From the NCBI GenBank assembly GCA_041742865.1, contig JBGTNW010000143.1:8203-72202 (forward strand): a stretch of DNA of 64,000 bases, in the 5' to 3' direction. Source of the DNA: Phormidesmis sp. Lineage in GTDB: Bacteria > Cyanobacteriota > Cyanobacteriia > Phormidesmidales > Phormidesmidaceae. This document shows positions 28,600 through 41,289 of the stretch, piece after piece (position 1 is the first letter of the stretch; the number at the start of each line of letters is the position of its first letter). The notes under the pieces are model-generated. The model saw nothing but the letters and a program-made list of their open reading frames with translations. It did not search any database and was not told where the DNA came from. The translations under genes were made by a program, and so were the position numbers.

Positions 28600-28642
28600 G
28601 AAGGCGGCACCCAGATTCGAACTGGGGGTAAAGGATTTGCAA
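28600..28642 (-). repeat. att core (left): 43-bp duplication of tRNA-Cys 3' half
   Basis: gaaggcggcacccagattcgaactgggggtaaaggatttgcaa is identical to 41217-41259. Confidence 0.97.
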
Positions 28643-28762
28643 GCTTTTTTGAAAAGCTGAAAAGCCTTCGTGTGTAGACTTTTCAGCTTTTTCTCTTTTC
28701 TGCTTAGCTTATGCCTAATCAAAGGGCACCCTTACAGAGTTTTTAAGGGTATTGAATTATTT

Positions 28763-29104
28763 ATGGCTGAGCCTACTTTGACCGATATATTCGGCGCTGG
28801 CGCTAACCAAACCGCCTCACTAATAACGATTTCTAAGGCTGATTTGGCAGCGGTCGGCCTAACAGCATCCGCTGACAATACGGCTGAAAGCTTGCTTGCT
28901 GCTATCGTCCTTAGAGCCAAAACAGCTCTAACACAAACGACCTTTGACTCAAACATTGACCAAAGCATAACTATTGAGAGCGGTTTCGATAGCATCGTAC
29001 AGCGAGATACCGGGAATAGCCTGTTTGCTAACTACAGGCAATTTCAACAAACGGTTTCTTTCTATCAAGCTGACCTTGCAATTTTAGACCCCGATAACCT
29101 GTAA
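28763..29104 (+). CDS. Hypothetical element protein (candidate structural), 113 aa
   Basis: Likely start MAEPTLTDIFG; TAATG coupling to next gene. Confidence 0.8.
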   Translation: MAEPTLTDIFGAGANQTASLITISKADLAAVGLTASADNTAESLLAAIVLRAKTALTQTTFDSNIDQSITIESGFDSIVQRDTGNSLFANYRQFQQTVSFYQADLAILDPDNL

Positions 29105-29739
29105 TGAGCTGCCATTCGCAGATAACACTAACAACCCCCTGTACAAATGGCAGCGTAAGGTACGGTGGGACTGCTCTAAACGGCTTTGGGCAATATGTTT
29201 ACCATGAAGATGTCATACAGCTAAGCGGGACTTTTTCTGATATCTGTATGACGATTTCCTATTGGGGAACGCATCAAGGGCAAAACTATCACCGTGTTTT
29301 TATTAATGGTGTGCAATCAGGCGCTGGATGGCTTGCTGATGTTCGGCTAATATCAACGGATTGTGCAGGGGTAGCACCTCCACCGCCGCCGCCAAGAGCT
29401 TGTATCTACAGTGAAATAATCAGCTTAGAAGCCTGTCGGGGGGGAGTGCACACCTTTAAGATTTTAGGAACGGCTTTGGGCGGGGATGCTAGATATTATG
29501 ATGTGGAGTTTTTTTACACTTTAACCAGTGATGCATCCAGCGCATTGGCTGAAAGCCGCAATCATCCTTTTGGTCAATTCCAGGGAGAGCAACTGTATCA
29601 GCCATTTATAAACGGCATTGCGGTTACCGGGGCTGGTTTTCGATGTGGCTTTAATATCACTGCTACTAGCGAATGCCCCCCTGATTGTTCTGATTGCTGT
29701 CGTGAATTATTGCCCTTACTGAGGAACATACGAGTATGA
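29104..29739 (+). CDS. Cys-rich two-repeat protein with polyproline linker and C-terminal CxxCC motif (candidate receptor-binding)
   Basis: Two related units (GTALxG, GxxQG, FING..GAG) split by PPPPPP; ends CSDCCRELLPLLRNIRV. Confidence 0.8.
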   Translation: MSCHSQITLTTPCTNGSVRYGGTALNGFGQYVYHEDVIQLSGTFSDICMTISYWGTHQGQNYHRVFINGVQSGAGWLADVRLISTDCAGVAPPPPPPRACIYSEIISLEACRGGVHTFKILGTALGGDARYYDVEFFYTLTSDASSALAESRNHPFGQFQGEQLYQPFINGIAVTGAGFRCGFNITATSECPPDCSDCCRELLPLLRNIRV

Positions 29740-29993
29740 CGTAGACACAATAGCTCTATTTTTCCATTGATGGGAATAGAGCTTTTCATCAATACGATAG
29801 TCAATATCCTGATAACTTTGGGATTTTGGAATATCTAGTGTTTTGGGATTCAAGGGCTCAACGTCTTTGTACTAATGGGGCTGGATGCATTGACTATCCG
29901 CCTGATGCTGTGATTGAGCCTGATCCTAGAAATCCCGGCTGTAGCGAGTGCTGTAGATCGCTTCTTCCCATTATTAGAGGCATAAGAATATGA
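29736..29993 (+). pseudogene. Hidden paralogue with CxxCC C-terminus, interrupted by two early TAG codons
   Basis: MT*TQ*LYFSIDGNRAFHQYD...[23 protein letters not shown] overlaps with both neighbours. Confidence 0.75.
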
Positions 29994-39978: not shown

Positions 39979-41079
39979 TCACGGCGGCGGCATCGGGCGA
40001 TCCGCTCGATTCATAGCCGCATCGTAAATTACTCTGTAGACATCTTCATCAATCCACCGCCGATATACCCGCGAATGAGTTTCAGGGCTATGGCCCATCA
40101 TCATGGCCCCAAAATCAGGCGAAAATTTAAACTCAAGGCTTCGGCGGGCATAGCAGTGGCGCAGGTCATAAGGCCGCAAGTTGTCGCCGTCGGGCTTCAT
40201 CAGCTTCCAAACATAAAAACGGCGGCTCACCTTCGAGCCTAGTTTTGTATTGGGCAGCTGATCAATATTTTCTAACTCAGGCAACTGGCAGCGGTGGAGC
40301 TGCCAAGCATCAGCCCACTCAGGATAGAGCGGCCAGCAAAAGCGCGCGCCGGTTTTAGTGTCCTTGCCGACTCGAACCGTAGGAAAGTCTGCGAGGTCGC
40401 AATGAAACAGCTCATGAGGTCGCAGGCCATAGCAGGCCAGCATACCAAAGCACCACTGCCAAGCAGGGCTAGAAATGCCCTCACGCCATTGAGCGATCAG
40501 GGCGTCGTCAGGAAGCGATCGCGGGTCAACCGATGCAGATGAATAGCGACCGCGCAGCGCTATAATACGGGCCGGATCTAGCTCAGCAAACCGGGCTAAC
40601 CGGGCGAAGGCCATACACACCCGCTGCCTCACTTTGGTGTTGGGTTCGATCTCTTTTACCGCATTGACCAACAGATTGAGAGAAAGCGGGCGATCGCGCG
40701 GCAACTTCTTAAAAGACTGCTCATAATCTCCCTCCCAGGTCACCGATTGACCACCGGCGGCGAAATATTCAGCCTCCAACCTGCTCACCCATTCAGCAAC
40801 CGAGCCGATAGAGTGATGCCTCATATAAGGCTCCCACCGGAAAGCGCCAGACTCAAGCAGCACGCCAACCTTACGGGCTTCTTTTTCAGCTAGAGCAATC
40901 GTGCGATCGCACGTTTTTAGCTTCAGCGCGATCCGCTGCTGAAAGGGCCGATCATGCTCAGATCCAGGCTTTGGCGGTAAAGTGCCCTGAAGATATAGCC
41001 AACCCTGTTTATCGTAGATTTTAAGCCGTAGCCCAAAATCCTTAAGTCTGGCATTCGCTTTCGCGATCACATCTGACAT
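39979..41079 (-). CDS. Tyrosine recombinase/integrase (cyanobacterial XisA/XisC-like)
   Basis: YGLRPHE (R), TKTG (K), PYDLRH, MMGHS, HSRVY (Y); adjacent to att site. Confidence 0.95.
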   Translation of the reverse strand: MSDVIAKANARLKDFGLRLKIYDKQGWLYLQGTLPPKPGSEHDRPFQQRIALKLKTCDRTIALAEKEARKVGVLLESGAFRWEPYMRHHSIGSVAEWVSRLEAEYFAAGGQSVTWEGDYEQSFKKLPRDRPLSLNLLVNAVKEIEPNTKVRQRVCMAFARLARFAELDPARIIALRGRYSSASVDPRSLPDDALIAQWREGISSPAWQWCFGMLACYGLRPHELFHCDLADFPTVRVGKDTKTGARFCWPLYPEWADAWQLHRCQLPELENIDQLPNTKLGSKVSRRFYVWKLMKPDGDNLRPYDLRHCYARRSLEFKFSPDFGAMMMGHSPETHSRVYRRWIDEDVYRVIYDAAMNRADRPMPPP

Positions 41080-41106
41080 TGCGGCTTAAATGCGACCTTA
41101 AAAATG

Positions 41107-41146
41107 TAGTCTTAATTAGTCTCTATTAGTCTTAATGAGTCCTAAT
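41107..41146. repeat. Four imperfect 10-bp tandem repeats between integrase and att site
   Basis: tagtcttaat tagtctctat tagtcttaat gagtcctaat. Confidence 0.8.
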
Positions 41147-41218
41147 CAATTAAACTTAAAGCCCGCCAAAACAAAGCTGCAAGCTAGTTTCAGCGGGCTT
41201 ATTAGCGAAAAATGGTGA

Positions 41219-41289
41219 AGGCGGCACCCAGATTCGAACTGGGGGTAAAGGATTTGCAATCCTCTGCCTTACCACTTGGCCATGCCGCC
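41219..41289 (-). tRNA. tRNA-Cys (GCA)
   Basis: GGCGGCATGGCCAAGTGGTAAGGCAGAGGATTGCAAATCCTTTACCCCCAGTTCGAATCTGGGTGCCGCCT folds as a cloverleaf; CCA not encoded. Confidence 0.97.

Follow-up and report, generated by a model that had tools for sequence, protein, structure and literature searches.

Structure and mobility of the element

We describe an integrated element at positions 28600-41259 of a 64,000-nucleotide (nt) stretch of a Phormidesmis sp. contig (JBGTNW010000143.1), the window of this study. It is an intact tRNA-Cys copy from an apparently undescribed family of mobile elements, 10-16 kb in size and widespread in cyanobacteria. On balance we favor a small temperate virus whose putative virion would be built from conserved, unrecognized proteins, likely without a packaging motor. 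The features for integration, replication and regulation are:

28600-28642, left attachment (att) copy with a 43-bp core that duplicates the 3′ part of tRNA-Cys (exact repeat; empty sites in relatives)
34520-34831 (-), Xis-like helix-turn-helix (HTH) protein, 103 amino acids (aa) (HTH_17, E=1.5e-4)
34824-35135 (-), 103-aa open reading frame (ORF), coupled to rep and xis and conserved alongside both (synteny)
35138-36574 (-), archaeo-eukaryotic primase (AEP)-type plasmid replication protein (Rep), 478 aa, without helicase motif (PHROG primase, only E=0.009)
37127-37354 (+), XRE repressor-like protein, 75 aa (HTH_3, E=1.5e-11)
39979-41079 (-), tyrosine integrase, 366 aa (PHROG integrase, E=1e-11)
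41217-41259, right att copy, within an intact tRNA-Cys (exact repeat; tRNA at 41219-41289, -)

The att copies are 100% identical over 43 nt at a spacing of 12,617 bp, exactly the perfect duplication and circle size given in the original prediction. The right copy overlaps the 3′ part of the tRNA-Cys gene, which is the sole tRNA-Cys of the assembly (84% complete). In 9 of 29 same-genus tRNA-Cys loci the element's left neighbor gene directly adjoins the tRNA, so the element is a mobile, site-specific insertion in tRNA-Cys; the 29 loci extend just 1.5 kb past the match, and emptiness was callable in 9. A related integrase stands at tRNA-Cys in two same-genus loci not called empty. In X1 and X2, both runs containing the element (from one study, and one of them perhaps the run behind the window), contig depth was 11-12 and 2-7 in the element against 15-19 and 13-15 in its flanks, respectively; contig depth is not copy number, and the lower values fit a mixed population with and without the element. 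Contigs of the element's own sample end at the 43-bp core, hence attP is not visible there.

Circular assemblies were found among relatives. Contig G026:C123 (14,495 bp) carries the same att core at each end, inside a 77-nt stretch that is repeated exactly. At its end, element terminus, core and integrase side follow one another, which is the attP junction, and the tRNA-side junction of this genome lies on another contig. A metagenome contig with the module (L102; 16,363 bp) has a 245-nt terminal repeat. The two circularly assembled relatives measure 14.4 and 16.1 kb. The full module is also held by a circular 37-kb Nostocales plasmid (CP019637.1) and o4-o5 by a 15.6-kb one (CP019638.1), these genes belonging to the late block described below; o5 matches occur in only 2 of 72,556 plasmid records.

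The integrase had been called motif-intact, and residues R220, K242, R307, H330 and Y339 are invariant in 6/6 aligned homologues, with the first His of H-x-x-R replaced by Tyr304 in all six. The AEP-type Rep, XRE regulator and Xis-like HTH of the original prediction likewise held up. In Rep, D84-x-D86 and H124, which correspond to AEP motifs, are conserved in 4/4 aligned sequences, there is no Walker A, and relatives occur on 74 cyanobacterial plasmid records. Rep is 48-51% identical to those of cyanobacterial AEP-Rep plasmids (e.g. Leptolyngbya BL0902), and the module itself is on plasmids pHT582-1 and pHT582-2; unlike these plasmids, the element integrates by att recombination.

The same tRNA-Cys site is occupied in locus L135 (G030:C5) by a 1.3-kb island whose att repeats enclose two small toxin-antitoxin-like ORFs, and is therefore a hotspot. 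Just inside the left att copy lies a long inverted repeat (28650-28690), possibly a terminator or a recombination arm site.

The late block

The region between the left att copy and xis carries nine genes, o1-o9, and one further feature:

28763-29104 (+), o1, 113 aa, acidic, conserved first late gene (family clustering, synteny)
29104-29739 (+), o2, 211 aa, Cys-rich, variable, putative host-recognition tip
29826-29993 (+), o3, 55 aa, TTG start, repeating the C-terminal Cys motif of o2
29990-32026 (+), o4, 678 aa, with an Ala-rich stalk, three hydrophobic segments, a collagen repeat (342-399) and a conserved C-terminal domain (~415-675)
32023-32847 (+), o5, 274 aa, family marker; model with three N-terminal helices and an alpha/beta domain (predicted local distance difference test, pLDDT, 89.8)
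32902-32920, imperfect palindrome, an instance of a family-wide motif with its center 82 nt before o6, putative late-promoter operator
32993-33538 (+), o6, 181 aa, basic (+9; +7 in the first 40 aa); alpha/beta model (pLDDT 91.7)
33538-33825 (+), o7, 95 aa, acidic, coupled to o6, putative scaffold or chaperone
33825-34178 (+), o8, 117 aa, beta-rich by sequence pattern, putative spike
34188-34499 (+), o9, 94-103 aa, one N-terminal hydrophobic helix, presumptive holin-like slot

A nine-ORF one-strand operon, mostly joined by overlaps, had been predicted. The nine same-strand ORFs at 28763-34499 (+) were confirmed, but only 5/8 junctions overlap (three TAATG, two ATGA), with gaps of 86, 145 and 9 nt at the others, and the block probably comprises two transcription units. 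Apart from the o4 collagen repeat, nothing convincing was found for o1-o9 in Pfam, PHROGs, NCBIfam or PADLOC. PHROG 'tail fibre' matches on o4 were mostly due to that repeat and were discounted, and a partial PADLOC match of o7 to Cas10d (63 residues against a 934-position model, E=5.5e-6) was judged spurious.

In some relatives the slot of o1 is taken by two other families, with no homology detected among the three, and a weak search found no o1 fused into longer proteins. The gene is often duplicated, and o6 is doubled in L020 and L081. The short o3 may be what is left of another o2-type gene. In o4 the conserved C-terminal domain stands behind an N-terminal part exchanged freely among relatives, as fibers would show; the protein is a putative trimeric fiber or entry protein. 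The o9 slot is variable among relatives.

Fold searches were carried out with the o5 and o6 models. For o5 the best Z score of 6.2 (root-mean-square deviation, rmsd, 2.8; 67 aligned) came from the helical N-terminus only, Foldseek gave no PDB match, and BFVD gave one row, A0A510E869 (E=4.7e-4, template modeling score 0.35, rmsd 17.5). Residues 99-270 are weakly 2H phosphoesterase-like (rotavirus VP3 domain, Z 5.3, rmsd 3.7, 102 aligned; Usb1, Z 5.1); a 2H-type enzyme was rejected, as no His is conserved in 151 sequences, and nucleic-acid binding is retained as a lead. In one subfamily (L086, L088-L091, L094-L097) the o4-type gene is a different one and o5 occurs as two diverged copies in tandem; a reading of the duplicated o5 genes as o4-o5 fusions found no support. 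For o6 the best Z was only 3.9 among 48,161 chains, BFVD gave nothing at E<=0.001, and the Atlas held no usable match for an o6 homologue. Profile searches of the PDB with o6, o5, o1 and o8-slot alignments gave nothing below E 0.1. These blank searches do not establish new folds. The basic N-terminus of o6 is found across its family, and o6 appears to be the best candidate for the main DNA-contacting coat protein.

By secondary structure in confident models, o5 and o6 are alpha/beta and so are not jelly-roll sandwiches. The fold evidence covers these two proteins, and a capsid fold in o1, o2, o4, o7, o8 or o9 is compatible with the data. The element could have diverged strongly from one of the known tailless groups (with a double or single jelly-roll, or FLiP-like) and have o8, o2 or o1 as its capsid protein, an explanation we find hardly credible. 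It draws on o8 and C2, a second family in the o8 slot, which both appear beta-rich in alignment, and on element size, which matches that of tailless prophages below 16 kb (PMC11630473). Yet o8 has just 117 aa, homology between the two families of its slot was not detectable (hhalign 0.16%), o2 is variable, and neither an ATPase nor a PDB or Pfam profile match was found. The closest Atlas neighbors of the C2 family are three clusters with 92-100% virus labels (scores 0.87-0.90), which is no more than a lead; since C2 and o8 share a slot and no demonstrated homology, this likeness applies to C2 only.

Distribution and conservation of the family

The o5 marker was found in 12/61 relatives and, across the phylum, in 44/401 genomes and 28/152 genera (own genome included); its sequences fall into 705 clusters at 50% identity. 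Among cultured strains, Nostocales HT-58-2 carries the module on plasmids, and a C2-family gene is present in Nostoc sp. PCC 7524. The ORFs of 54 loci were clustered, 52 of them with o5; the loci were picked by o5, which is therefore universal by construction, and many of the 52 are cut by contig ends or the 20-kb limit. An o4-type gene is present in 49 of the 52, an o1-slot gene in 44 (o1 itself in 28), an o6-type gene in 39 and o7 in 28. The module is syntenic in the 52 loci, with the conserved order o1-(o2)-o4-o5-o6-o7-o8-o9 on swappable Rep, recombinase and tRNA-site modules.

Four different Rep families occur among these loci, including an AAA_25 type and primase-helicases that combine DUF3854 with D5 or VapE-like domains. 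A recombinase is present in 36/52 (32 tyrosine, 4 serine, 7 IS110-like); the IS110-like ones stand near the modules of L019, L023, L060, L061, L069, L087 and L089. In seven loci, at the tRNA genes for Lys, Pro, Phe (twice), Cys, Glu and Thr, repeats delimit elements with sizes from 9.9 to 15.5 kb, in a search confined to 8-20 kb. When 102 family representatives were scanned, the core families gave no match, and collagen, F5/8, LamG, DUF4376, peptidase M15, M23 and amidase were recognized in accessory genes inside or next to the module. The original prediction had listed an endolysin among the missing genes; this is correct for the tRNA-Cys copy and fails as a family trait, since relatives carry M15, M23 and amidase enzymes.

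No description of the family was found in the literature, subscription journals not being covered; members may stand among the 101 dark proviruses listed with PMC13626063. Eight weak IMG/VR matches to o1 carry no family gene. In the element's own assembly no clustered regularly interspaced short palindromic repeat (CRISPR) arrays were detected. The same genome has a second, partial element (L027; G000:C126). It comprises o1 and o2, the beginning of an o4-like gene, a primase-helicase and a C2-like gene, lacks o5 and o6, and has a transposon at its end.

Much of this would also suit an integrative plasmid that is not viral and uses the module to make a fiber on the cell surface or on vesicles, for adhesion or DNA transfer in vesicles, with the wall hydrolases serving export. 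The plasmid-type Rep with its 74 plasmid records, the occurrence on ParAB plasmids, the hydrophobic segments and collagen repeat of o4, and the absence of the family from viral collections all agree with it. We nevertheless regard it as distinctly improbable: the block is found with recombinases and Reps at narrow sizes and many different tRNA sites, no relaxase or secretion genes were found in Pfam or NCBIfam, and the basic o6 and divergent lysin-type genes would suit a virus better.

Hallmark genes and known systems

No match to a terminase, portal, capsid, ATPase, relaxase or endolysin was found in the 20 ORFs of the element with Pfam, PHROGs and NCBIfam, in agreement with the hallmarks listed as unrecognized in the original prediction; two HTH ORFs match a terminase small subunit at the HTH level only. 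Walker A is absent from the element's ORFs and conserved in none of the core families, and two six-frame matches lie outside the frames of called ORFs. Of the tailed-phage (Caudoviricetes) hallmarks, neither a large terminase nor a portal was matched among the 20 ORFs. The HK97-fold capsid gave no sequence match, the fold search covering the o5 and o6 models, and integrative and conjugative or mobilizable elements gave no relaxase, coupling protein or type IV secretion system match in Pfam and NCBIfam. In PADLOC, defense systems gave only HTH-level matches on XRE and the spurious o7 match. No known phage, satellite or defense family was thus matched, and the module is conserved as a unit.

A packaging ATPase of the A32/FtsK type is characteristic of PM2-like phages. 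With PM2-like corticoviruses (Vinavirales) and other tailless temperate phages, the element shares a size below ~16 kb, an integrase, repressor and Rep, a compact late block and, in some members, lysis genes. Unlike in PM2-like phages, no ATPase was found in it, and its two modelled core proteins are alpha/beta; the PM2-like prophages are defined by a double jelly-roll capsid in PMC11630473, which also gives marker genes of three prophage realms.

Filamentous phages (Tubulavirales) have a short single-helix membrane coat protein. The element resembles them in being small, integrating and devoid of a recognized terminase, portal or tail. It differs in having no pI/Zot ATPase match (Pfam, PHROGs), an AEP rather than a rolling-circle Rep, lysins in relatives and no small hydrophobic coat gene among the core genes; in an ORF list from 50 aa up, only o9 has one hydrophobic helix. 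Cyanobacterial provirus size is multimodal according to PMC13626063, and the 19-kb cryptic prophage in PMC4907049 has a terminase and is distinct from the element.

A conserved palindrome precedes o6

The o5 gene is translationally coupled to o4, and in most loci the next gene follows after a gap of ~90-145 nt. This gap holds an 18-19-bp palindrome centered 66-92 nt before the next start codon. At least seven of nine pairs were present in 31/49 upstream regions, where shuffles predict 4.6 and a control window gave 5, and eight or more pairs in 19/49 (0.4 expected), two tandem second copies having been removed before counting. Because the search interval had been chosen post hoc and the loci are related, the test was repeated on 17 newly fetched loci, 10 of which had a scorable gene; 8 of these 10 passed, against 0.74 expected and 0 in the control. 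Ahead of other element genes, far fewer regions pass (o1, 5/38; short integrase, 4/26; one o1-slot family, 4/9).

The palindrome also stands upstream of unrelated genes found in place of o6 or pointing in the opposite direction, which argues for a DNA operator rather than a feature of o6. A -10-like hexamer starts 36-38 nt after the center of the best site in 14/49 cases. Scored with a matrix built from the relatives, the copy at 32902-32920 ranks first in the 64-kb window. The host genome shows no enrichment of the motif (144 sites versus 140-193 expected), and a host regulon was rejected on this ground. Motif discovery by expectation maximization had a blurred outcome. Only one subgroup of the palindromes resembles the HetR site. 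The palindrome is likely a late-promoter operator, and its conservation after o5 suggests that the late block is likely two units, the second with a regulated promoter of its own. No regulator family common to all elements was detected, so the binder would be a core protein, the product of a missed small gene or a helper product.

A helper product would fit a new phage-satellite family with its own integration, excision and replication, packaged in a helper cyanophage capsid, in which fiber, adaptor or scaffold proteins from the late block remodel the helper particle and a helper activator reads the palindrome. The backbone agrees: like the P4-like, PICI, cfPICI, PLE, PICMI and tycheposon satellites (PMC11389934), the element has a tRNA-targeted integrase, excisionase, XRE regulator and primase-type Rep in an att-bounded island of 10-16 kb with no capsid or terminase match and no recognizable packaging motor. 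The same paper describes capsid-reshaping satellites and others that come with a capsid of their own, which counts for such a family. The primase-helicases and AAA_25-type Reps of relatives also agree with it, as does a palindrome conserved with no shared regulator detected and no enrichment in the host genome. We think it rather unlikely all the same. Unlike in satellites, no capsid, small terminase or scaffold family was matched (by sequence; o5 and o6 by fold), and the element's own assembly has no large terminase, a weak point at 84% completeness. The family also has a large, structural-looking block of six to nine conserved genes with fiber-type, holin-like and lysin-type members, which exceeds the content of most satellites.

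A second, AT-centered palindrome type lies ~72 nt before the o1-slot gene in L020, L060, L069, L075, L081, L083 and L086, mostly where a short tyrosine recombinase is divergent; it is possibly the recombination site of that enzyme.

Interpretation and proposed life cycle

Of the predicted temperate, plasmid-like virus or satellite, the mobile and excisable nature, the plasmid-type replication and the conserved module stand (empty sites, circular relatives, synteny in 52 loci), while the virion and the choice of virus over satellite are what we infer. A small temperate virus is the reading that we favor on balance. Its fuller form would be a lineage of temperate viruses that need no helper and are present in roughly every tenth cyanobacterial genome, with a virion (o6, o5, o1) outside the realm-defining capsid lineages and packaging without an ATPase; this form we advance tentatively, as a little short of an even chance.

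In such a virus, XRE would keep the element silent. Upon induction, integrase and Xis would excise the 12,617-bp circle, which the AEP Rep would copy with a host helicase. A second, operator-controlled late promoter would then give high o6 output, and the basic N-terminus of o6 would coat the DNA; with no ATPase, the shell would assemble around it. A trimeric fiber for attachment and entry would be formed by o4, with its base made of o5 and a variable tip of o2, while o8 would serve as a spike and o9 would act like a holin. Relatives would leave the cell by lysing it with a wall hydrolase of their own, and the tRNA-Cys copy would need one from elsewhere.

Several observations weigh against the virus. 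The codon bias of o6 is weak, exceeding that of o4 in 23/37 loci, and an o6-type gene is absent from 13/52 loci (4 with unrelated small genes in the slot, some loci cut short), which is awkward for a major coat protein. The palindrome, shared with no regulator family detected, is also compatible with helper control. Wall hydrolases occur in just 6/52 loci (by cluster) and two metagenome contigs, and in none of the genes of the tRNA-Cys copy. The element is shallower than its flanks in both runs, so there is no replication signal, and a tandem array in G026 would yield the same junction as a circle. Finally, no family member was found in IMG/VR or INPHARED.

Virus detection and taxonomy depend on few capsid and packaging hallmarks (PMC11630473). 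A common hallmark-free cyanobacterial element that excises and circularizes, with relatives carrying fiber and lysis genes, would represent a class of satellites or a virion architecture that is new and that current tools would miss.

Accessory genes and other observations

The remaining genes of the element are:

37494-39509, accessory ORFs of 110 aa (-), then 191, 125, 79 and 74 aa (+), all except the last common to close relatives
39751-39975 (+), ssr2422-family membrane protein, 74 aa, a host-type gene inside the element (NCBIfam, relatives)

Two sets of inverted repeats are candidate operators, one before xre (37083-37128, 20-nt arms) and one before the ssr2422-like gene (39514-39553, 16-nt perfect arms). 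The ssr2422-family gene in the element is intact and 88% identical to the gene beside the empty tRNA-Cys site of a close relative (L106), and the host-side copy left of the element (28305-28523) is decayed (43%). The pair suggests an exchange between element and flank or leftovers of earlier insertions. In host context, 2.7 kb outside the right att copy, lies a phage-type lysozyme gene (43933-44676; PF00959, E=2e-51), which could, as a speculation, provide lysis in trans.

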